A stretch of DNA of 64,000 nt from Octopus vulgaris (lineage: Eukaryota), in contig OX597817.1 in NCBI GenBank assembly GCA_951406725.2, positions 124,620,001-124,684,000 on the forward strand. The letters are read 5' to 3'. Made by a program: the position numbers and the translations under genes. Below the pieces are notes generated by a model, which saw only the letters and a program-made list of their open reading frames with translations, was not told where the DNA came from and searched no databases. Positions within the stretch are counted from its first letter, which is position 1. Every line of letters starts with the position of its first letter. Shown piece after piece: positions 5,096 to 56,990 of this stretch.

Positions 5096-6888
5096 GTACT
5101 TTTATGAGTACATTACCTAACAATCCACTTATTTTAATTTCAAGTTACATGTACTTTGATAGATTCTCAACCTCCTTCCAGGCAATGTTTTAGTCAGAAG
5201 AGATGGATTTGTATTTCCAAGAAAAGAACTTTTCATTCTGTCCTTGATAATTATAACAACAGTTTGCTTTAATCACCTTGTCAAACTGGACACACATATC
5301 CCACATTAGTGTAGCCAAGCAGTTTTAAACATACCATGTTTAATATATGCTTATATCTCATCTTATCTATTTTTATGTTGAAGTGTCAGAATATTATGCA
5401 ATGGAGTTAGCTGCTGACTTGATTATGTCAGTGAATACAGTTGGAGTTAGAAAGGACTGTGTAACAATAAATGTCATAATCAATTGTATCACAGTACTGA
5501 TGGCAATATCTGCACTGGATACTGTTTTTTATATTACTTTATTCTTATAGTTATTAATGGTTTGGCATTAATCCTTTGCATCTACCATCAGGCTTTCTAT
5601 TTCTGCTTTCAACCCAGAGCTAAAGTTAGCTTTCTCCCTGACTGCCAATTCATGTAGGGTATTGACCAGAGACTTTTCCTTTCATGCAGTTGCTTTCACA
5701 AATTTGTCTAGAAACATTCTTGTTTTTATATTTTTCTGAATTGATGTATAATTTTTAATACTTTCTCTAGTTGTGTATTATACCCTATAAACAGTGTTAA
5801 GTCAACCAAAGAGAAAAGATGATTTGCAATTTGTCCATAATATTTGTAACTAATGTGGGTTTTATTCTGTAGATTTGTTAATGGGGTCAAAGCTATGCAA
5901 AAAGGCAGAAGAAAAATGTCTTTCTGAAAGATTAATCTTTCAAAGGATATATGGCTGGTTGTATTTATCTTTCCTTTTCCTTGCAGGAGAGAAACCAAAT
6001 TAGTTTCATTTTCTTGCAGTAGCCATATTACTTATGTTGGTAATATCTTTAACAAAAGATTATTAACTCAGTTCACCTTATTTCCTTTTCTGCCTTGAAG
6101 TCTGCAGTCTGGCAATTATGTGAGAAATTATTATTATTATTATTATAGAGATAGAGATATCACAATGCTATCTCGGCAAACTTATCACTGTCTCTAGCTA
6201 AAACATGAAATATATACTGCAGTATTTTCTATGGAACAATAAATATCATTGTTTCATATTTTGCATAAAAGTAAATGAAGCTTAAAGATACTATAAGCAA
6301 GACTACACACACACACACACATCTATGTACTTCAAAAATGTTATACAGAGTAAAATAAAGATAGTATTACAAAGCCAAGTAAACGAATTTTCTTGAGAAT
6401 TAACTGCAGACTGTTTTCAGGATAAATTCCATTTAGTCTAGTAAGAAATTTCAGACTTTCATTCCATAAAGTCCATATGATATAGAATTCTACATTCAAT
6501 GTCTGTTGCAAATTATAGGAGAAAATTTGTAAGAGAATTATAATTCTATAATAATATTTCCTCCTATTAACTCTTCGTTAATGATAAAATGATTTAAAAA
6601 TAAAACACTGTGAATGTTACTATTTCAAACAGCACTTATATCACTTGATCTTCATACCGTAGTATTCCTGCTGTCGAGGCATGGAAAAGTTTTTTAAGCA
6701 ATAGTTTCTACTTTTGCTTGTCTTTAGTTTTCCAAGACCAGCTGCTCCAATACAGAAATAAATATTGTTGTAACTTCTATGAAGGCATTTTGAGCTTGGT
6801 CAACCCTGGTGGTGTTTATATTATTTCGCCAGGATATAAATGTTGTTGGCTCTCAAGGGTCAAATAATTTTTAAAATTCTGCTCAGTT

Positions 6889-7289
6889 AGGCGTAGGAGT
6901 GGCTGTGTGGTAAGTAGCTTGCTTACCAACCACATGGTTCCGGGTTCAGTCCCACTGTATGGCACCTTGGGCAAGTGTCTTCTACTATAGCCTTGGGCTG
7001 ACCAAAGCCTTGTGAGTGGATTTGGTAGACGGAAACTGAAAAGAAGCCCATAGTATATATGTATATATATATATATGCATGTGTGTGTTTGTGTGTCTGT
7101 GTTTGTCCCCCTAGCATTGTTTGACAACCGATGCTGGTGTTTTTATGTCCCTGTTACTTAGCGGTTCGGCAAAAGAGACCGATAGAATAAGTACTGGGCA
7201 TACAAAAGAATAAGTCCCGGTGTTGAGTTGCTCGATTAAAGGTGGTGCTCCAGCATGGCCGCAGTCAAATGACTGAAAGAAGTAAAAGA

Positions 7290-7298
<9 letters not shown>
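6889..7298 (+). mobile_element. tRNA-derived SINE, family A (~410 bp)
   Basis: A-box-like tggctgtgtggtaag, B-box-like gggttcagtccc, internal (TA)/(TG) tract, (gtaaaaga)n tail; at least 11 copies in window. Confidence 0.9.
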
Positions 7299-12468: not shown

Positions 12469-13902
12469 CTAGCAGTATCGCCCGGCGTTGCTCGGGTTTG
12501 TAAGGGAAATAACTATAAAGCATTTTTAGAGAGTTATAGCCAAAAAATAGCAAAAAAATGCATTAAAAATGGAAAAAAAATGATGGTAATTTTTTTTTAA
12601 ATCGTTGACTCATCGTAGACGCGCGCTAATACACAGACGGACTCGATATGAATCACGACTATAAGATACCCGAATTTGGTTAAACTGCACCGCAAAATGT
12701 GGGAGTAGTTAGGAATCTAAATCGTAGGAGACAGACACTCACACAACTTCACTTTTATATATATAGATATATATATGGTCTTATGCTATATGCGCACATA
12801 TATGTGCGTGCGCGAACGTGTGCGTGCGCCTGCGCAAAAGTGTGACTGCGCATGCGCGAACGTGTGCGTGCGCATGCGCGAACGTGTGACTGTGCATGCG
12901 CGAACGTGTGACTGCGCATGCGCGAAAGTGTGATTGCGCATGCGCGAACGTGTGCGTGAGCATGCGCCAACGTGTGACTCCGCATGCGCGAACGTGTGCG
13001 TGCGAATGCGCGAACGTGTGAATGCGCATGCGCGAAAGTGTGACTGCGCATGCGCGAAAGTGTAACTGCGCATGCGCGAACGTGGGCGTGCGCATGCGCG
13101 AACGTGGGCGTGCGCATGCGCGAACGTGTGAAAACGCATACGCGAACGTGTGAATGCGCCTGCGCGAACGTGTGCGTGCGCATGCGCGAACGTGTGACTG
13201 CGCATGCGTGAAAGTGTGACTGCGCATGCGCGAAAGGGTGACTGCGCATGCGCGAACGTGTGCGTGCGCATGCGCGAACATGTGAATGCGCATGCGCGAA
13301 CGTGTGCGTGCGCATGCGCGAACATGTGAATGCACATGCGCGAACGTGTGACTGCGCATGCGCGAAAGTGTGACTGCACATGCGCGAAAGGGTGACTGCG
13401 CATGCGCGAAAGGGTGACTGCGCATGCGCGAAAGTGTAACTGCGCATGCGCGAACGTGTGCGTGCGCGTGCGCGAACATGTGACTGCGCATGCGCGAACG
13501 TGTGCGTACGCTTGCGCGAACGTGTGACTGCGCATGCGCGAACGTGTGCGTGCGCATGCGCCTACGTGTGACTGCGCATACGCGAACGTGTGCGTGTCAC
13601 ACTTTACGAGGGAGGGAAGAAGGGGGAGAAGCAACACAGGTGCAGGTGTGAGCATGGACGCCAACTACGCCGCCATCGACACACGAAAAAATATGCGTTA
13701 AAATGGAAAAAAAATTATGTTAAATTATTTTTAAAATCGTAGACTCATTGTAGACGCGCGCTAATACCCAGACGGGCTCGATATGAATCACGACTATAAG
13801 ATACCCGAATTTGGTTAAACTGCACCGCAAAATGTGGGAGTAGTTAGGAATCTAAATCGTAGGAGACAGACACTCACACAACTTCACTTTTATATATATA
13901 GA
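12469..13902 (-). mobile_element. composite non-autonomous Helitron with two 5' ends (12767, 13902) and one 3' end
   Basis: minus strand A|TCtatatatataaaagtgaag at both 5' ends; 3' hairpin cccgagcaacgccggg followed by CTAG|T at 12469; 12560-12767 is duplicated at 13695-13902. Confidence 0.8.
12800..13596. repeat. 22-bp CpG-rich minisatellite, ~36 units (consensus tgcgcatgcgcgaacgtgtgac)
   Basis: direct tandem repetition; explains the three overlapping repetitive ORFs. Confidence 0.97.
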
Positions 13903-16185: not shown

Positions 16186-17149
16186 TAATAATAATAATGA
16201 TAATAATAATCCTTTCTACTATAGGCACAAGGCCTGAAATTTTTGGACAGGAGTTAGTTAATTCCATCAGCTCCAGTGAAAGCATGCATTAAAAATAAGT
16301 TTACTGAATGTTAATAATAAACCTCTGTTGTGTTGTGCAACTGGTCAGCCTTGACAGAGTAGAAACATTATGCAAGCATTCCGTGTGTGACCTTCCAGTA
16401 TTTTCTCTGTCTAGTACTACATTATTCAATGTTTTCTTCTTTATGCAAAAAGATAGGTTTTAATTTAAGGGAATTTTCACTCACATTTCTAGCAGGTTGA
16501 TTAACTGCATAAATGCTTCCTCACTATCTTTCTCTCTCTAAATCATTTATATTTTATTGGAATTGGTGAAAGAAATAATGGAAAGGAATATTTTTAAAAT
16601 AAAAATTATGAGACTGAAAATGAAAGTAGCAAATAACTGACTCAGAGAAGCTTATTATGCATGTATTTGTTATAAGAATGTGTCATAGTTTTGCCAATGT
16701 ATTTTGCTATACAAGCTATCAAATAGAAATGTAGTTAAATCTCGCTACCATATTTTAAACAGAAATGACAGTCCATCAGAATGTAAACCTTACAAATGTA
16801 TATACACATCAGAGAGAAGCTAGCTACAACTAGAGTGCAAGTTGATTGATGCTGAATGAAGTTCAACCCAGGATAAGTTGATACTGTCCAGCCAGTGTCA
16901 ACTTAGTACAAGCTATGTAGTTAAGCAACTATAAGCTGTTTAAATCCAGTTATGAGCTTAAGTTATTGTTATTGCTTAGCCCCAGGACTGTCACAGTAAA
17001 GTGTACTTGTGATCTGACATAGTGTATCTAGAATTACATTGTTAAATTGTGTCCGCAGTGCGTGTACAACTATTTTATCATTTGTATACAAATGGTAGGA
17101 TGTGCAATTTTGGAATCATTTGGCATCTGCTTCTTATTTATCAAGAGAT

Positions 17150-17545
17150 AGGTGCAGGAGTGGCTGTGTGATAAGTAGCTTGTTTACCAACCACATGGTT
17201 CCGGGTTCAGTCTCACTGTGTGGCACCTTCGGCAAGTGTCTTCTACTATAGCCTCGGGCCGACCAATGCCTTGTGAGTGGATTTGGTAGACGGAAACTGA
17301 AAGAAGCCCGTCGTATATATGTATATATATATATGCGTGTGTGTTTTTGTGTGTCTGTGTTTGTCCCCCAAGCCTTGCTTGACAACCGATGCTGGTGTGT
17401 TTACATCACTTAGCGGTTTGGCAAAAGAGACCGATAGAATAAGTACTGTGCTTACAAAAAGAATAAGTCCCAGGGTCGAGTTGCTCGATTAAAGGCGGTG
17501 CTTCAGCATGGCCGCAGTCAAATGACTGAAACAAGTAAAAGAGAG
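17150..17545 (+). mobile_element. SINE family A
   Basis: colinear with 6889-7298. Confidence 0.9.
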
Positions 17546-37960: not shown

Positions 37961-38427
37961 TCATCACCTTGATCATTATATTAATGTCTACATATCCATG
38001 ACTGCATGCATTCGACAGAATTTACTGAGGCAGATTTCTCATGCTTATATAATGAGCTCCTTTCAGTTTCTTTTTTACCAAATTCTCTCAGAAGGCATTA
38101 GTTACCTAAAATTGTAGAAGACACTTGTCCAGGTTTCTATGCAATGGGACTGAACTCGAAACCTTGTGGTTTAGAACTCAATTTCTGATCTACACAGCCA
38201 TGTCTGTGACTAAGTCATACCTACATATCATAAATATAAATTGGTCACTAATAAAGATATAAGTTTGATCTTGTAAACTGATTGCTAAATATATATTACA
38301 AGATTTAATCTATTTGTAGATCGATAATGGATCTCTGTTGTCAGTTTCAAGCTTAAGTATTCAGTAGTTTGAACTCCTGAGCTACCTGCATATTAAATTA
38401 GCATGGATTAATTGCTCCACTGACATA

Positions 38428-38849
38428 CTCTTTACTCTCTTTTACTCTTTTACTTGTTTCAGTCATTTGAGTGCGACCATGCTGGAGCACATCCATTAGT
38501 CGAGCAAATTGACCCCAGTACTTATTCTTTGTAAGCCTAGTACTCATTCTATCGGTCTCTTTTGCCGAACTGCTAAGTTACGTGGACGTAAACACACCAG
38601 CATCGGTTGTCAAATGATGTTGGGGGGACAAACACAGACACAGAAACACACACACACACACACATACGCACATATATACATATATACAATGGGCTTCTTT
38701 CAGTTTCCGTCTACCAAATCCAGTCACAAGGCTTTGGTCGGCCCGAGGCTATAGCAGAAGACACTTGCCCAAGGGGCTATGCAGTGGGAATGAACTCAGA
38801 ACCATGTGGTTGGTAAGCAAGCTACTTACCACACAACCACTCCTGTGCC
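38428..38849 (-). mobile_element. SINE family A
   Basis: reverse complement of the family consensus. Confidence 0.9.
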
Positions 38850-39723
38850 AATGTGTACCATTGAAGTAATTCTCAAACAAAATTAGTATAAAAGTAACAA
38901 GGTTTGACCTATGTTTTACAGGTGGATACCCTCTGGCAGGTTTCAACATATTTTGTCTCATAGTTTTTCCACATATCTTTTATCTACAGTATTTCACTCA
39001 TATGGCTTGGATTGGTCTAATGCATTTACACAAGTTACTATGCAATGGGATCAAACCTGAAACCTTATGATTGCAAAGCAAACTTGTTAATCATTTAGCC
39101 ATGTTAGCATTCATGATATGACCGATGTATAAACAACAAATCAGTTATGTTGAATATTCAGGAATGTTACCCACAAGGAAAATAATAGTTAAGCTAATAT
39201 TTACATATTTAATTTGATGAATATTAAGATGTAATTTCATCTACTTCAGTAACAGAGAAAAGAAAAACCCATTCTTTCATTCACTAATTAGCAAAATTAA
39301 GGTAGATCTACTTCTCTGATCTACCTGAGGATGTCTAATAAGATTGAAACATGTTAAGCGTTGCTTCTCTTACCTATTAAAATTTTTAAAAGAGCATTGA
39401 TCATTGAATTAATATTGTCTTTCTTTTACCTCATGAGTATTTTGATTAGATTTTTTATCAATAAATGCCTGGTTAATTGAGAAACAGAGCAGAAGCAATT
39501 GTGTATAAGACTACTGAATTTGAATGAGACCCAACCAGGCTGAAATTATGACCATTCTTTTATTGGATACATATGTTCTCTTCATAGGTAATAGCATTAA
39601 CGATAGGTATGTATATGTGTGTGTGTATACATATGTATTTAGAATACATATCGTTTAACGTCCGCTAGCATGGAGAACGGACGTTAAACGATGATGATAA
39701 TGATGATGATGATATATATATAT

Positions 39724-40143
39724 AGGCGTAGAAATGGCTGTGTGGTAAGTAGCTTGCTTACCAACCACATGGTTCCGGGTTCAGTCCCACTGTGTGGCAC
39801 CTTGGGCAAGTGTCTTCCACTATAACCTTGGGCCGACCAAAGCCTTGTGAGTGGATTTGGTAGACGGAAACAGAAAGAAGCCCATCGTATATATATGTAT
39901 ATATATATATATATGTATGTATGTGTGTGTATATGTTTGTGTTTGTCCTATCCAACATCGCTTGACAACCGATGCTGGTGTGTTTACGTCCCTGTAACTT
40001 AGCGGTTTGGCAAAACAGACCAATAGAATAAGTACTAGGCTTACAAAGAATAAGTCCTGGGGTTGATTTCCTTGACTAAAGGCGGCGCTCCAGCATGGCC
40101 AGTCACATGACTGAAACAAGTAAAAGAGTAAAAGAGTAAAGAG
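39724..40143 (+). mobile_element. SINE family A
   Basis: colinear with 6889-7298. Confidence 0.9.
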
Positions 40144-41389: not shown

Positions 41390-41784
41390 TTATTCTTTTA
41401 TTTGTTTCAGTCATTTGACTGCGACCATACTAAAGCACCACCTTTAGTCAAACAAATCAACCCCAGAACTTATTCTTTGTAAACCTAGTAATTATTCTAT
41501 TGGCCACTTTTGCCCGAACTGCTAAGTTACAGGTATGTAAACACACCAACATTGGTTGTCAAACGATGGTGGGGGGACAAACACAGACACACAAACATAT
41601 ATATATATATATATAATATATATATATATGATGGGCTTCTTTCAGTTTCCGTCTACCAAATATACTCACAAGGCTTTGGTTAGCTATAGTAGAAGACACT
41701 TGCCCAGGGTGCCACACAGTGGGACTGAAACAGAACTATGTGGTTGGTAAGCAAGCTACTTACCACACAGCCACTCCTGCACCT
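41390..41784 (-). mobile_element. SINE family A
   Basis: reverse complement of the family consensus. Confidence 0.9.
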
Positions 41785-42191
41785 ATGAATATATGTTTAT
41801 ATTCTAAATTAAAATACTAAGCTACCTAAGTGTAACATTTTCAGTGATATCTATTCAAGTTTTTTAAAGTTCATGAAGACTTACCCATAACTTAAAATTA
41901 ATTATCTACAAACCACCTGATGAATGTCAAAGAAAGTTTTAAGAGTGTCAATGAAAATTGATAATGGCTAATTTAATTGAATTTAATTTATAGATAAAGT
42001 TTTTATGTATTGAAATGCACTCTTTGTTTGATTTGCATAATAGTGGAATTTTTATGTCTCTGTTTTATGGTTCAGTTAGCAATGATTATTACTATCAAAA
42101 TTGGATTAATGTGAAATCTGATTTGCCCTGTAAATTTGGATTTATTCTCTAATAGCCTTCTATTAGTATATATATATATATATATTTGGTA

Positions 42192-42237
<46 letters not shown>

Positions 42238-42649
42238 TAAGGGTAGAAATTGATATTTATCAATTAAGACCAGTGGTCTAGCATTTGAAAAAAATAAAAA
42301 ACAGAAAGTTTGATGTAGCACAAACGTGACACTACCATTCTTATCATTACTGAATCTCTTTCTATATGAAAATCACACATTTTGCTTTCTTTCTAAACCA
42401 CTACTCCAAACAAAATATGACACAACTACTCCAAACAAAATATGACACAACTACTCCATTTTGATATTCATTTTTTTTACATTTTCTTTCTTGGTAGGCA
42501 TTAATGTGTTTGCAGAGGAAGAATTTTAGATATTTCCTAAAAAAATGTTATACAAATTTCCATGTGAACTGGTAGACAGTTGTACATAAAGTTATTAGTT
42601 CCAGTAAACGAGGAAGCTATACATATAAATTTACTCTTATATAAACATA

Positions 42650-42671
42650 AATATATATATATATGTATGTA

Positions 42672-42769: not shown

Positions 42770-42822
<53 letters not shown>

Positions 42823-42837
42823 TTTTATGCATACATA

Positions 42838-42869
<32 letters not shown>

Positions 42870-43025
42870 TGTATATATATATGTTCCCAACTTTGACACT
42901 CCATAAATCCAAAATTTTGGATATATATATATGTGTGTGTGGGTGTGTGTGTGTACGTATGTATATATATATATATATGTGTGTGTATGTATATATATAT
43001 CTATATCTATCTATATATATATAGT
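42650..43025. repeat. compound (TCTA)n/(TA)n/(CA)n microsatellite
   Basis: read directly. Confidence 0.95.
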
Positions 43026-43159
43026 CTATCACATTATACTTTTGATGCATGCATAATTATTGCTAACTGAACCATAAAAAGAAAGACATAGAAATTCACA
43101 CTTTCCTGCGAACACCTCCGAGTGCATTTCAGCTCTAGGAGCTTGTCTCTATTTTGCTT

Positions 43160-43791
43160 CAAAATTATAAACAACTTATAAATAAGGGCAAAAGAAAAAA
43201 AAATTCCTATACCAAATGTGCTGGGAAATAGACTTTAAATCGTCAGTAACCACATATAATTCATCACTAAAAGTTTTCACCTTAAAAGGTATCTTTTAAT
43301 ATGCTGGCCACTGATAAAATTTTTTGAAAATTTTATCCTATATTAGATGCAAATTTAATACCATTCACATCTGGGCAGTCTCTTACTTAATGGGAATTTT
43401 CACTCTGATCACGTGTGTCTTGAGGTGTGCTGCAAAATTTCTATTTGGATATATTTAGGGTACTTAAGTGTACCCATGGCTTTGCATATGCTTGTTCCAT
43501 GTGTGCAAGTAAGTATTTCATTTATTTCTTAATGTATTTATCACTGATGATGAGAAAATTATTTATGAATCAACTCAGAAATTGGGACCGATTTGGTGAT
43601 AATAGAATTTTTTATAAATTTCTGACAGCTTCCTTCGAGACACGTGTTTTTAGTGATGAATTATATGTGTTTCTTGACAATTTAAAGTTTATTTTTTGGC
43701 ATATTTGGCATAAGAATTTTTTCTTTTGCCCTTATTTATAAGTTGTTTATAATTTTCACCTTAAAAGGTATTTTTTAATATACTGGCCACT
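43160..43791 (+). mobile_element. hammerhead-containing monomer, subfamily 1 (479-bp period, 43274-43752, restarting at 43753) with an inverted 5' fragment (43160-43273)
   Basis: ttttcaccttaaaaggtat.ttttaatat.ctggccact at 43274 and again at 43753; 43160-43273 is the reverse complement of ~43646-43756. Confidence 0.8.
43538..43599 (+). ncRNA. type I hammerhead ribozyme HHR1
   Basis: ttatca CTGATGA tgag[19 nt]ctca GAAA ttgg-ga-ccga TT tggtga. Confidence 0.75.
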
Positions 43792-43836
43792 ATATAAGTT
43801 ATATATATATATATATATATATATATACAAATATAT

Positions 43837-44333
43837 AACTTATAAATAAGGGCAAATGAAAAAATTTCCAATGCCAAATATGACGAAATTGGACACCAAT
43901 GTGTCCAATTTGGCATATTTGGCATTGGAAATTTTTTCATTTCCATTACCATATAATTTTTCACAATACGCACGATACTCGAAAAAGGTCGACAGAAATT
44001 TCTAAAAAATTCCATTATTACCATATTGGACCGATTTCAGGGTTAGCTCATAAGAGCCCTCCCTTCGTCAGTGATAAATGTGGCAAAAGAAATAAATGAG
44101 ATACTTACTCATATCCATGGAAGAAGCAAACACTAAGTCATGAGCACATTTAAGTACCTCCAAATATATCCAAAATAGAAATTCTCCAGCCCACTCGAGA
44201 CACGTGCGATGTGAACTGAGGCTCTCACAGAGTGAGAGAGTCCGGAAGTGAACACTATTAAATTTATATCTAATGTAGGATAAAATTTTTTAGAAAAACC
44301 TTTAAAGGTTAAATTTATAAACAACTTATAAAT
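43837..44333 (-). mobile_element. hammerhead-containing monomer, subfamily 2 (486-bp period)
   Basis: aacttataaat at 43837 and 44323; reverse complement is colinear with, but diverged from, 43274-43752. Confidence 0.8.
44018..44077 (-). ncRNA. type I hammerhead ribozyme HHR2
   Basis: minus strand ttatca CTGACGA aggg-ag-ggctc-ttat-gagct-aa-ccct GAAA tcggtccaa TA tggtaa. Confidence 0.8.
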
Positions 44334-44368
44334 GAGTAAGTATCTCATTTATTTCTTTGCCACATTTA

Positions 44369-44547
44369 TCTTTCTTGGTAGGCATTAATGTGTTTGCAGA
44401 GGAAGAATTTTAGATATTTCCTAAAAAATGTTATACAAATTTCCATGTGAACTAGTAGACAGTTGTACATAAAGTTATTTAGTTCCAGTAAATGAGGAAG
44501 CTATACATATAAATTTATTCTTATATAAACATAAATATATATATATA
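44369..44547 (+). repeat. near-identical copy of upstream DNA 42485-42660
   Basis: tctttcttggtaggcattaatgtgtttgcagaggaagaattttag...tataaacataaatatat at both sites. Confidence 0.92.
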
Positions 44548-44648
44548 AGTATTTATAAGTTGTTTATAAATTTAACCTTTAAAGCTATTTTTTAATATGC
44601 TGGCCATTGATAACATTTTTTTTCAGAAAGAATTTTATCCTACATTAA

Positions 44649-44706
<58 letters not shown>

Positions 44707-44784
44707 TCAGAGAGAGAGAAAGTGAAGAGTGTGAGTTTATAAAGCTTGAAGTTGCTGGTAATTTTCTTGTCAAATTGTTTAAAT

Positions 44785-45170
44785 AAAGGTCTCTTGGCTC
44801 TCCAGTATATTTACCCAAACGTTACAACATACTTGAACCCAGTGCACCCATGCTTTTCTATCTCACTGAAGGTGTATTCACTCACGGTAGCTTCTTATTC
44901 ATTGGTGAGTTCTACCAGTAGGTATCTGGGGTGTCTATGTGAATGAAAATGGGTCCCAATATTGCCAACATATTTGTTGGATCAGAAATCGTCAGTAACC
45001 ACATATAATTCATCACTAAAAGTTTTCACCTTAAAAGGTATCTTTTATATAGCTGCTACACTGATGATTGTATCATCACCTGTGAACAACTGATTAACTT
45101 CCTCAGTTACTTCAGTTCATTTCACCCCATTCTTCGATTCCCCTGTGTCATTTCTGAATCCTCTGACTCC
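44785..45170 (+). pseudogene. Penelope-like element reverse transcriptase relic (motifs B' to C), interrupted at 44988-45047
   Basis: KGLLALQY / EPSAPMLFYLTEGVFTHGSFLFIGEFYQ*VSGVSM*MKMGPNIANIFVG (cf. FxFxGxxYxQxxGxAMGTxMGPxxANLFVG), then CYTDDCI..EQLINFLSYFSSFHPILRF..ISE (cf. RYIDD...FVNSFHPxLKFT). Confidence 0.88.
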
Positions 45171-45430
45171 TTTAACTGACTCAACTGCTCTCTCACCTCA
45201 GCCACGTTCTTCAAACCCATTGATACTTACTTCTCTTTTGACTTTTCTTCCCCCAACCCATCTACACCAAAGGCACAATCTCTTACTACCAGTTTCTCTG
45301 ACTCTGCCTTCTGTGCATCCATGACCAAGTTTTTGAGACATATGTGTGTGTGCATCTATACATGTATGTATGTATATATATATGTATGTGTTAGTATATA
45401 TATGTCTCTCTCTCTCTCTCCCTCTCTCTC

Positions 45431-45471
<41 letters not shown>

Positions 45472-45898
45472 TCATCATCATTATTTAACATCCATATTAC
45501 AAGCAGTCATAGGTTATTTATATATGCATGTATGTATATACACTGAAAGCCAAACACTCACACATGCTCAACCCACTTACATCTCACACATTCAGATATA
45601 AATTACATACACACACATATAGATATATCTATAAATACAGACACACACACACACAGTCTTTAGACTAAACAGTAGTTGCTTTAGACTTGGTTTGTTTTAG
45701 TGTGATCTTGATGTGTTGAAAGGGAAAAAACATTCTCTCATACATCATTTATTTTACTGCCTAACATGGCAGGCAACCTGGGATCTGATCTCACTTAATC
45801 TTGTTAATACATGCAACTAAATGACTATGAGCTTATGCTGCCTTCATATTTTTCAATATAAATAATTATAAATCAAACAAGTGAACATACAACCTATA

Positions 45899-46255
45899 GG
45901 TTAAATTTATAAACAACTTATAAATGAGTAAGTATCTCATTTATTTCTTTGCCACATTTATCACTGACGAAGGGAGGATTCTCACGAACTAACCCTGAAA
46001 TCGGTCCGATATGGTAATAATGGAATTTTTTAGAAATTTCTGTCGACCTTTTACGAGTAGCGTGCGTATTGTGAAAAATTATATGGTTATGGACAATGTG
46101 TCCAATTTCGGCATATTTGACATTGGAAATTTTTTCGTTTGCCCTTATTTATAAGTTGTTTATAAATTTAACCTTTAAAGCTATTTTTTAATATGCTGAC
46201 CATTGATAAAGTCCCAATAGTTTTAATTCTAGAAAATTTTATCCTACATTAAATA
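45899..46255 (+). mobile_element. partial subfamily 2 monomer; HHR3 bracketed by a perfect 27-bp inverted repeat (45899-45925 / 46147-46173)
   Basis: ggttaaatttataaacaacttataaat ... atttataagttgtttataaatttaacc. Confidence 0.85.
45958..46017 (+). ncRNA. type I hammerhead ribozyme HHR3
   Basis: ttatca CTGACGA aggg[18 nt]ccct GAAA tcgg-t-ccga TA tggtaa; quasi-palindromic stem III. Confidence 0.85.
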
Positions 46256-46338
46256 TAGAAAACAAGGAAACATACTAAACGCATATAAATGTTAAAAAAG
46301 AAAGGAAAAAGTGGAGGTAAAAAACGACATTCATTTTT

Positions 46339-46549
46339 AATTGTTTAAATAAAGGTCTCTTGGCTCTCCAGTATATTTACCCAAACGTTTCAACATACTT
46401 GAACCCAGTGCACCCATGCTTTTCTGTCTCACTGAAGTTGTATTCACTCATGGTAGCTTCTTATTCATTGGTGAGTTCTACAAGTAAGGTATCTTACTAT
46501 GTGAATGAAAATGGGTCCCTATATTGCCAACATATTTGTTGGATCAGAA
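46339..46549 (+). pseudogene. second copy of the Penelope-like RT fragment
   Basis: colinear with 44774-44987. Confidence 0.85.
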
Positions 46550-46599
46550 GTGGCCCAAATCTTCTCAAAATGTATATATTGATATAAGATAGAAAATTA

Positions 46600-46614
46600 T
46601 CTGTCTATCTGTCC

Positions 46615-46707
<93 letters not shown>

Positions 46708-47015: not shown

Positions 47016-47303
47016 CGAAACTGAAAGAAGCCTGTCGTATATATGTATATATATATGTATGTGTGTGTATGTTTGTGTGTGTATGTTTGTGTGTCTGTGT
47101 TTGTCCCCCTAGCATTGCTTGACAACCGATGCTGGTGTGTTTACATCCCCATAACTTAGCAGTTCGGCAAAAGAGACCGATAGAGTAAGTACTGGGCTTA
47201 CAAAGAATAAGTCCCAGGGTCGATTTGCTCGACTAAAGGCGGTGCTCCAGCATGGCCACAGTCAAATGACTGAAACAGGTAAAAGAGTAAAAGAATAAAA
47301 GAG
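47016..47303 (+). mobile_element. SINE family A, 5'-truncated
   Basis: starts at gaaactgaaagaagcc. Confidence 0.88.
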
Positions 47304-48184
47304 AATATACATAGATGCATACATGCAAATACAGATACACATCATTGGCTTTCGATAATCTGCACATACCAAATCCTCTCATAAGTCCCAGGATTGTAGA
47401 AGTTACTTACCCAGGGATGTGTGTTTATTTACATCTATACATATCACAAACAGGTGTGTGTGTATATGCGTGTGTGTGTGTCTGTGTCTGTGTGTGTTCT
47501 GGGTATGACTTTAAACTAAATGTCATTTTCAGGCTCCAATCTAGAAGTTCTTGGAGTTGTAGTTGGAGTTAATTATGATCACTCACAGGTCCATTCTGAT
47601 TCAGAATGGTGGCTCCTGACAGGGTTCCACCTATGGGCTAGATATATTACCTAGTGGTAGAGGAGGCTCCCATTATTTTTGACAAAGCTGGGGTGAAAAC
47701 AGCTCTTCTAAAAGAAAGATACTCTGATGTAAATCTTGCTGTCAATATAATACCAATCATCTTGCAATGCATGGCATTGGAACCTACTATGGTGACTGGA
47801 GAGTGGCCAAAGTATTCTACAAGCTTTGACACTTGAATCCAAAGGTATACAGACTGTCATTTGAATTTCAGACAGCTATTATCTGTCAGGATGAAGTAAT
47901 CATCTTCATATATATACATAGTAGAATAGTAAAAAAAGTTTGTGGTACAGTATAATATATTTGAAAAAATGAGTAGAGATGGCTTTTGTGGGGATAAGTT
48001 TTATTTTAATGATAATGAATATAGTTATTCTAATGAGTTTCAAGCTTTTCAATAGCTGAAAACAGCTATTGAAAAGCTCAAAATGCATTAGAGCAACTGT
48101 AAACATTATCATTGAAATAAAAAATTATCCCCACAAAAGAGGGGATACTCATTTTTTCATATATATATTACTCTTTTTTTTTAT

Positions 48185-48592
48185 TACTCTTTTATTTGTT
48201 TCAGTCATTTGACTGTGACCATGCTGGAGCACTACCTTTAGTCGAGCAAATCGACCCCAGGACTTATTCTTTGTAAGCCTAGCACTTATTCTATCGGTCT
48301 CTTTTGCCGAACCACTAAGTTATGGGGATATAAACACACCAGCATCGGTTGTCAAGCGATGTTGGGGGGACAAACACAGAGACACAAACATATACACACA
48401 CATACATACATATATATATACATATATATACGACGAGCTTCTTTCAGTTTCCATCTATCAAATCCACTCACAAGGCTTTGGTCGACCTGAGGCCATAAGA
48501 AGACACTTGCCCAAGGTGCCATGCAGTGGGACTGAACATGGAACTATGTGGTTTGTTAGCAAGCTACTTACCACACAGCCACTCCTACGCCT
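48185..48592 (-). mobile_element. SINE family A
   Basis: reverse complement of the family consensus. Confidence 0.9.
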
Positions 48593-48775
48593 ATATATAT
48601 ATGTTGGATTTTACTCACAAGGTATTAGAATCTTATATGTATACAATTCTGCCTAAATAATGGATATACAAATGCAATATCCCTGCATATCTCACTTTCT
48701 ATTTTCACTCCTCCACTTCACTCTCTATTTCGTATCTTATCTAAATTAACTATCACTTAAGCATTTTCTCACACC

Positions 48776-50803: not shown

Positions 50804-50965
50804 CAAAATAAGCAACAAGGATATCCAAAGGTAATGCAGTATATTGGATATCTTTGTTGCTTATTTTGATTACAATCGTCCCATTTTGAATTATATGGAT
50901 AGTACCATACCAAATTCTGGTGCCTTTAACTTAAGTACCATATTCAACTGAATCTAAATTTTTAC

Positions 50966-51595: not shown

Positions 51596-52066
51596 TCTTC
51601 CATTAAAAGTTACATAAAAAATAGTTGTAATGAGCTGACACTTATCCATCGTATTTTATTCATTTGATTATAATACACCAAGGGAATGATTTGTTGGACA
51701 CCCTAGAGTATACCAGCAATGTACTACTCAAAGTAACACATAATGTAGACCAGCCCCTTAGGCAATAAAAATTCATAGAGTTTTACTTTCCTCTGTGTAC
51801 AAAACAAGAATATCCAAAGGTAATGCAGTATATTGGATATCCTTGTTGCTTATTTTGATTACAATCACCCCATTTTGAATTATATCGATAATGCCATACC
51901 AAATTCTGGTGCCTTTAACTTAAGTACCATATTCAACTGAATATCTCAACTCCAACCAGCCATTGGCTGGAACCACTACCTGGTGCATACTTTTCAAGTA
52001 CCTGATTCTATCAGAATTCTCTTCTTAATTCTATACGTATACATACACAAACACACACACATATAA

Positions 52067-56475: not shown

Positions 56476-56911
56476 ACTCTTTTACTCTTTTACTTGTTTC
56501 AGGCATTTGACTGCGGCCATGCTGGAGCACCGCATTTTTGGTCAAGCAAATCGACCCAGGGACTTATTCTTTGTAAGCCTAGTGCTTATTCTATTGGTAT
56601 CTTTTGCTGAACCAATAAGTTACAAAGACGTAAACACACCAGTATTGGTTGTCAAGCGATGTTGGGAGGACAAACACAGACACACATGCATACACATACA
56701 CACACATATATATATATATATGTGCGTGTGTGTATGTATATATACATACGACGGGCTTCTTTCAGTTTCCTCCTACCAAATCCACTCACAAGGCTTTGGT
56801 CAGCCCGAGACTATAGCAGAAGATACTTGTCCAAGGTGCCATGCAGTGGGACTGAACCCAGAACCATGTGGTTGGTAAGCAAGCTACTTACCACACAGCC
56901 ACTCCTGCACC
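56476..56911 (-). mobile_element. SINE family A
   Basis: reverse complement of the family consensus. Confidence 0.9.
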
Positions 56912-56990
56912 TATGCAAAAACTTTTATGGTTTGTTTTATATATGTATACTCATGCATATAGTTACATGTCTAGACATGTGTACATACAG

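Follow-up and report, generated by a model that had tools for sequence, protein, structure and literature searches.

The locus described here, in a 64,000-nucleotide stretch of Octopus vulgaris DNA (the window), is a real but ordinary fossil of a Penelope-like element (PLE) beside a real and abundant hammerhead repeat of PLE type. A preliminary description had taken the interleaving of a PLE reverse transcriptase (RT) relic with ribozyme monomers as a link between these monomers and the RT family that probably mobilizes them. This interleaving is most likely a product of assembly; its absence elsewhere was directly seen, while assembly as its cause is what we infer. The explanation that we consider probable combines a decayed PLE relic, retrozyme-like insertions upstream of it, and a merge of two versions of the locus out of register during assembly. 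The proposed link between the monomers and the RT of the relic does not stand, as the insert within the relic and the second RT copy are absent from the sequencing runs compared, the duplicates appear to represent one locus seen twice, and the depths of relic and repeat are disparate.

Hammerheads have been described in PLE terminal repeats (PMC4209133), animal retrozymes are known, with PLEs as candidate mobilizers (PMC7229834), and Xenopus retrozymes are directly homologous to PLE termini (bioRxiv 10.64898/2026.07.22.740005). A general link between PLEs and hammerheads has already been proposed (PMC7229834) and is supported in Xenopus (bioRxiv 2026.07.22.740005). A non-exhaustive literature search identified no paper on the repeat family at this locus; a related family may be present among the consensus files that accompany PMC8557442. 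A true physical link between RT and repeat would be useful and is not provided by this locus; its remaining value is an abundant repeat family with PLE-type ends, which offers a handle for finding the autonomous partner in the genome. To our knowledge, the enzyme that moves animal hammerhead repeats still lacks direct demonstration.

Table 1. Features of the hammerhead repeat and RT relic cluster (window coordinates)
Feature	Position	Strand	Remarks
Short inverted arm of M1 (copy of monomer 3' part)	43161..43272	-	86.6% to 43648-43756, opposite strand
Monomer M1, divergent subfamily	43275..43789	+	Type I hammerhead with core at 43544; direct repeat of 49 bp at the termini, 479 bp apart
(TA)n microsatellite, common end of M1 and M2	43800..43837	.	
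Monomer M2	43831..44336	-	Hammerhead core at 44071; one mismatch in helix III
Start of inverted arm adjoining M2	44332..44370	+	97.5% to 44073-44112 reversed; exact to 45924-45962
Putative patch from unique flank 42485-42663	44369..44547	+	Offset +1884; 179 bp vs 183-bp M3 middle
Monomer arm: 3' end, tail, short extension	44550..44653	+	
(AC)n microsatellite, between arm and RT relic	44655..44703	.	
Copy A: decayed Neptune/Nematis-type PLE RT fragment	44782..45340	+	Protein search, profile alignment
62-bp patch from junction 43237-43298	44986..45047	+	Offset +1749; replaces RT sequence; absent from X3, X4, X7
Monomer M3	45898..46257	+	Hammerhead at 45964; skipped by X4 contig
Local flank, the "spacer" of copy B	46251..46343	+	Joined to sequence before 45898 in X4 (side 93)
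RT copy B	46339..46571	+	Offset +1566/+1562; own letters in 0/4 runs

The presence of a PLE RT relic, as claimed in the preliminary description, was confirmed. A frameshift-aware profile alignment of 44782-45340 on the + strand reached 111 bits, compared to 13-17 bits for six shuffles, along a path with two frameshifts and three stops that covers profile positions 371-560 of 805 (about 190); the two peptides quoted earlier lie in one + frame from 44820. An exhaustive phmmer search of 1.84 billion proteins yielded 264 matches at E<=1e-3 (best E 2.9e-17, 41% identity), and RVT_1 and GIY-YIG were matched by 13 and 8, respectively, of 15 scanned relatives, mostly below Pfam cut-offs; these matches place the relic, through its relatives, among the PLE-clade RTs. 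Long relatives consist of an RT, a CX2-5CxxC linker and, at the C-terminus, a GIY-YIG domain. As this linker, found in 21 of the 28 relatives of at least 500 aa, marks Neptune and Nematis PLEs (PMC8557442), the relic is classed as Neptune/Nematis-type through these relatives only, since it ends before the linker region itself. Copy A extends from the core motifs to the start of the thumb, with the N-terminus, linker and endonuclease missing, and a profile of the 28 long relatives found nothing past the thumb in the 64-kb window, where the relic and copy B were its only PLE protein matches; the GIY-YIG endonuclease is lost by truncation. Searches of the relic against Pfam, a word-indexed protein collection and PDB sequences gave no match, and none of 24 candidate RT relatives in viral contigs was confirmed. 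Few relatives are named, and those are snails; the region itself is AT-rich, microsatellite-laden, animal-type DNA. What remains of an old Neptune/Nematis-type PLE at this site is an RT fragment of 560 bp, which has decayed in situ. Compared to the Neptune/Nematis EN+ PLEs (Arkhipova 2006, summarised in PMC8557442), the relic is alike in the RT core, at 36-46% to the ten best matches and with one at 35% just below, but carries stops and frameshifts, covers only about 190 of the 805 profile positions, and has no linker, endonuclease or terminal repeat of its own.

A strict descriptor identified only three type I hammerheads in the 64 kb, at 43544 (+), 44071 (-) and 45964 (+), with the CUGANGA and GAAA core, helices I-III and the NUH site of that class. 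Across the three rows 41 of 42 cells are paired and two helix II pairs are changed on both sides, a covariation that with only three rows is not above that of shuffles (110/500). No Rfam family matched at gathering score in the 64 kb, the 43 Rfam matches to E 10 over 42800-46700 included no hammerhead family, minimum-energy folds of the three hammerheads lacked the full motif (z -1.2, -2.6 and 0.0), and a loose hammerhead pattern was not enriched in the window (33 matches, with 7 of 100 shuffles as high). In the hammerhead of the repeat, helix II carries a long extension and helix III is a palindrome of 4 bp. M1 and M2 form an inverted repeat of about 1 kb (43327-44289), the inverted arm that starts at 44332 stops just short of the hammerhead core, and the ends of M3 match 44306-44370 and 44550-44653 at an offset of about +1595. 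With regard to coding capacity, an open frame of 67 codons that follows the hammerhead of M2 matched none of 258 PLE-like proteins, 27 monomer frames searched against the same number of proteins revealed no ORF remnant (best E 0.019), and the monomers, spacers and downstream flank showed no PLE protein similarity. The monomer pattern occurred in none of the metagenome contigs searched. Within M2, and in neither M1 nor M3, there is a near-perfect palindrome of 89 bp (43854-43942, 91%). Each of the three monomers has a GTAAGT that resembles a splice donor, some 35 bp upstream of its hammerhead (45925-45935 in M3); the Penelope terminal repeat contains an intron.

The hammerhead repeat (43161-44653 and 45907-46202) is very abundant, with a summed depth thousands of times that of single copy in all four runs compared. 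Summed depth over the hammerhead was 2,772-12,784 times, and at the monomer 3' end 20,412-30,814 times, that of the RT block, ratios that are not copy numbers and are read only as "thousands". Loose ends behind 46164 were (TA)n in each of the four runs (28-33 contigs each), and repeat depth dropped steeply after 46202, past the tail. Together with the inverted arms at 43161-43272 and 44332-44370, this (TA)n microsatellite target and the tail are hallmarks of PLE insertion, which include a tail, an inverted truncated copy and a microsatellite bias (PMC8557442, PMC3846280, PMC11167929). Like the PLE insertion units of these reports, with their pseudo-LTR, inverted truncated copy and 30-40-bp tail, the repeat has a 5'-side inverted truncated arm and a microsatellite target and extends about 38 bp beyond the common 3' end; unlike them, it has no ORF, and its hammerhead is not the minimal form of intact relatives. 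It resembles animal non-LTR retrozymes (PMC7229834; bioRxiv 10.64898/2026.07.22.740005) in being non-coding and AT-rich, with a type I hammerhead and very high depth. Its 479-bp period falls within the 51-972 bp reported for vertebrate retrozyme families but exceeds the 170-400 nt of invertebrate retrozyme circles. In place of the tandem arrays of retrozymes, the window shows units that stand singly, with inverted arms; M1 carries a 479-bp terminal repeat, yet nowhere in the window do two full units follow each other.

These sequence features suggest that the repeat is a high-copy, non-autonomous, retrozyme-like family of about 480 bp that derives from a PLE. The part of the earlier reading that stands is that some PLE probably moves the repeat, as judged from the (TA)n ends, tail and inverted arms; a PLE mobilizer is plausible at the level of the clade, whereas the link to the RT family of the relic fails. 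While the anatomy of the repeat is directly visible, its mobilization can be sketched by analogy with the PLE literature. The repeat would most likely work like a PLE terminal repeat, being transcribed and optionally cut by its ribozyme, for which the palindromic helix III suggests dimer-type cleavage (PMC4209133). An RT-GIY-YIG protein would then bind the transcript in trans, nick AT-rich or microsatellite DNA and copy the transcript, and the copying would leave the tail and the inverted truncated arm. The repeat appears to have inserted more than once in this way into microsatellites just upstream of the relic, as M1 and as M2 with its inverted arm.

The interleaving itself has two components, an insert in the relic and a second RT copy. 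The insert had been described as a 60-bp copy of an inversion junction; it is present and exact, spans 62 bp (44986-45047, identical to 43237-43298), has no RT similarity, and is swapped in for RT sequence, not merely added. The RT block had further been reported as duplicated at 46339-46549, with both copies at a similar distance after the same monomer segment. The window text does contain this duplication (44773-44987 and 46339-46549, 93.5% identity) and the shared monomer segment, with 7 substitutions plus indels in 212 bp between copies A and B and with several of the A/B and flank differences being transitions. The end assigned to the block was incorrect, since copy B stays in the RT frame to about 46570 (E 1e-6), and the distances differ, with spacers of 119 bp (copy A) and 81 bp (copy B) that show no alignment to each other. 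Since copy B continues, a common breakpoint at the end of both RT copies was rejected as well. By running on in the RT frame, copy B preserves the RT continuation that the insert replaced in copy A.

Four sequencing runs from other individuals (X1, X3, X4 and X7, with X3, X4 and X7 under organism labels A, B and C), of 24 listed, the best of the 24 sharing 0.48 of words, were compared with the window over 45500-46590 at 80% likeness, using Logan contigs, which drop rare alleles; X1 and X3 were covered to about 80%. X3, X4 and X7 each contain one contig (669, 682 and 500 letters; depth 32, 42 and 5.4) across 46339-46571, with depths in X4 and X7 close to those of the unique flank (43 and 6.2, respectively). 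In each of the three, this contig agrees with copy A at every one of the six diagnostic substitutions, extends upstream by 89-90 letters that match spacer A as far as the (AC)n and not spacer B, and passes through an uninterrupted RT continuation; X1 shows copy-A letters at 5 of 5 covered diagnostic sites (of six) and the uninterrupted letter at 46550. A single contig across the RT block means that the orthologous relic in X3, X4 and X7 is uninterrupted, with no twin to break the contig, and none of the four runs contained copy-B letters. A contig in X4 furthermore joins 45898 to 46251 and skips M3, and in X1 and X7 contigs depart from the stretch at 45898 with a further 193 and 188 letters to run; the flank is not covered in X3. 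Compared to the window, these flanks show only 1-2 differing letters in 276-290. Single-copy depth of the relic was seen at 80% likeness, and in every run half or more of the contigs have a likeness to the stretch of 90% or higher. The insert and copy B are hence unsupported, in the runs compared, outside the window's own text; locus A is read here from contig letters and lengths, with the junctions at 44369 and 44986 lying outside the compared 45500-46590. A clock test assigned 8 of 10 differences to copy B (P 0.003) but is not counted as support, as copy B could be a second allele and rare alleles are lost from the contigs.

The arrangement of the local duplicates points to assembly. All are direct and co-linear with the donor upstream, at offsets of 1.56-1.88 kb: 42485 recurs at 44369 (+1884), 43237 at 44986 (+1749), 44306 at 45898 (+1592), 44550 at 46146 (+1596), 44773 at 46339 (+1566) and 44935 at 46497 (+1562), with a range of 1592-1604 for M3. 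The 179-bp patch (about 44371-44549) occupies exactly the place taken in M3 by a 183-bp middle with the hammerhead, and switches between versions fall at short look-alike stretches. Direct duplicates in the same order at a near-constant offset argue for two versions of one locus, possibly two haplotypes or read sets, that would have been merged 1.6-1.9 kb out of register, with a consensus that toggled between them at look-alike stretches and so yielded the 62-bp insert, M3 and RT copy B. The insert then is a patch and one locus is seen twice, which is why "monomer then RT" appears twice; the true layout would probably be a monomer arm, (AC)n and an uninterrupted RT relic, i.e., one neighbourly contact, best explained by a shared preference for microsatellite targets and not by descent. 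The locus thereby warns that out-of-register merging can fake "repeated" associations. Further short direct duplicates lie about 1.0-1.1 kb apart at 846-927 and 1965-2046 (98.8%) and at 50814-50953 and 51803-51942 (95%), and may be further cases of such mis-merging in this assembly. Just upstream of the donor of the first patch lies a perfect 25-bp tandem duplication (42400-42458).

The chief alternative is a genuine rearrangement confined to this individual's haplotype, in which the mosaic would have arisen by repeated template switching, either in replication repair next to the 1-kb M1/M2 inverted repeat or through template jumps of a PLE RT; the relic would still be unrelated to the origin of the monomer. 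The junctions at short similar stretches, the adjoining inverted repeat at 43327-44289, the template jumps proposed for PLEs (PMC3846280), and the transitions among the A/B and flank differences all agree with such an origin. We nevertheless consider it unlikely, since the near-constant offset, same order and near-equal length of the replaced pieces persist over 2 kb, the mosaic is absent from the runs compared though the flanks differ by only 1-2 letters in about 280, and 7 substitutions plus indels in 212 bp are high for a recent copy. Capture of host DNA between two monomer repeats and its mobilization in trans, as in rotifer Penelope, would account for the direct monomers on both sides of the relic in the window, and DNA capture between terminal repeats has been described (PMC3846280); as X4 skips the downstream M3, contigs of X1 and X7 do not run into it, and the relic shows one contig and not a source plus a copy, we regard this origin as exceedingly improbable. 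Very improbable, too, is a real mosaic written by a still-active PLE RT that jumped templates of a read-through transcript, with the relic marking the Neptune-type parent lineage of a repeat with thousands of copies; if true, this one locus would record, in a living population, how a retrozyme family copies the DNA next to it, the RT of its parent included.

With an out-of-register merge as the preferred reading, the question becomes whether the monomer could still have arisen from the terminal repeat of a PLE of which the relic is the body, in which case this RT family would mobilize the monomers. Arm and relic do share a strand, with about 120 bp between them, and the sole PLE relic and the sole monomer cluster in the 64 kb lie closer together than expected by uniform chance; in addition, linker-bearing relatives are thought to target microsatellites (PMC8557442), with the monomers ending in (TA)n, and vertebrate retrozymes match PLE terminal repeats (bioRxiv 2026.07.22.740005). 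Several results nonetheless make this descent improbable. About 370 profile positions of the ORF are missing between arm and relic, where an (AC)n microsatellite separates the two, and nothing follows the thumb; X4 has no downstream monomer, and upstream of its hammerhead the monomer holds no remnant of an endonuclease end. The relic is single-copy at 80% likeness while the monomer is thousands of times deeper, and the "second instance" of the contact is not independent. No hammerhead terminal repeats of its own were found to flank the relic ORF, M3 being skipped in X4 and the arm being cut off by (AC)n and the missing N-terminus.

The preliminary description had proposed checking whether the ends of intact PLEs match the monomer. 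As a proxy, 80 of 332 metagenome loci that encode relatives were used, 26 of which had the ORF end plus 300 bp; none of the 80 matched the monomer (best 21 bp, E 0.011), which is a weak test of terminal-repeat identity as these loci come from other animals. With a relaxed descriptor, a sense hammerhead was detected 105-161 nt after the ORF end in 12 of the 26, as compared to 0/26 in antisense and 0/520 in shuffles, and with the strict descriptor in 2 of 26. All 12 are of the minimal form, unlike that of the monomer, and the intact relatives thus combine a different hammerhead with no DNA similarity to the monomer, again within the limits of a weak test in other animals. These Neptune-type PLEs with a minimal sense hammerhead at a tight distance (L004, L006, L012, L015, L022, L029, L035, L042-L044, L046 and L053) are an observation in their own right. 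That PLE-type insertions gather here although they are not one element is evident from M1 and M2, two copies of a divergent subfamily with a microsatellite in common. Nothing at the locus ties a PLE mobilizer to the relic, and the interleaving does not name the mobilizer.

Other repeats were observed in the window. A GC-rich 22-bp minisatellite (35.6 copies) at 12560-13890 lies between two element copies of about 200 bp, each ending in a TA run, which may resemble Helentron/DINE-type ends. A dispersed SINE-like family is represented by many copies of 88-95% identity, at 6885-7294, 17146-17543, 38426-38853, 39722-40140, 41400-41785, 47095-47313, 48160-48593 and 56749-56915.
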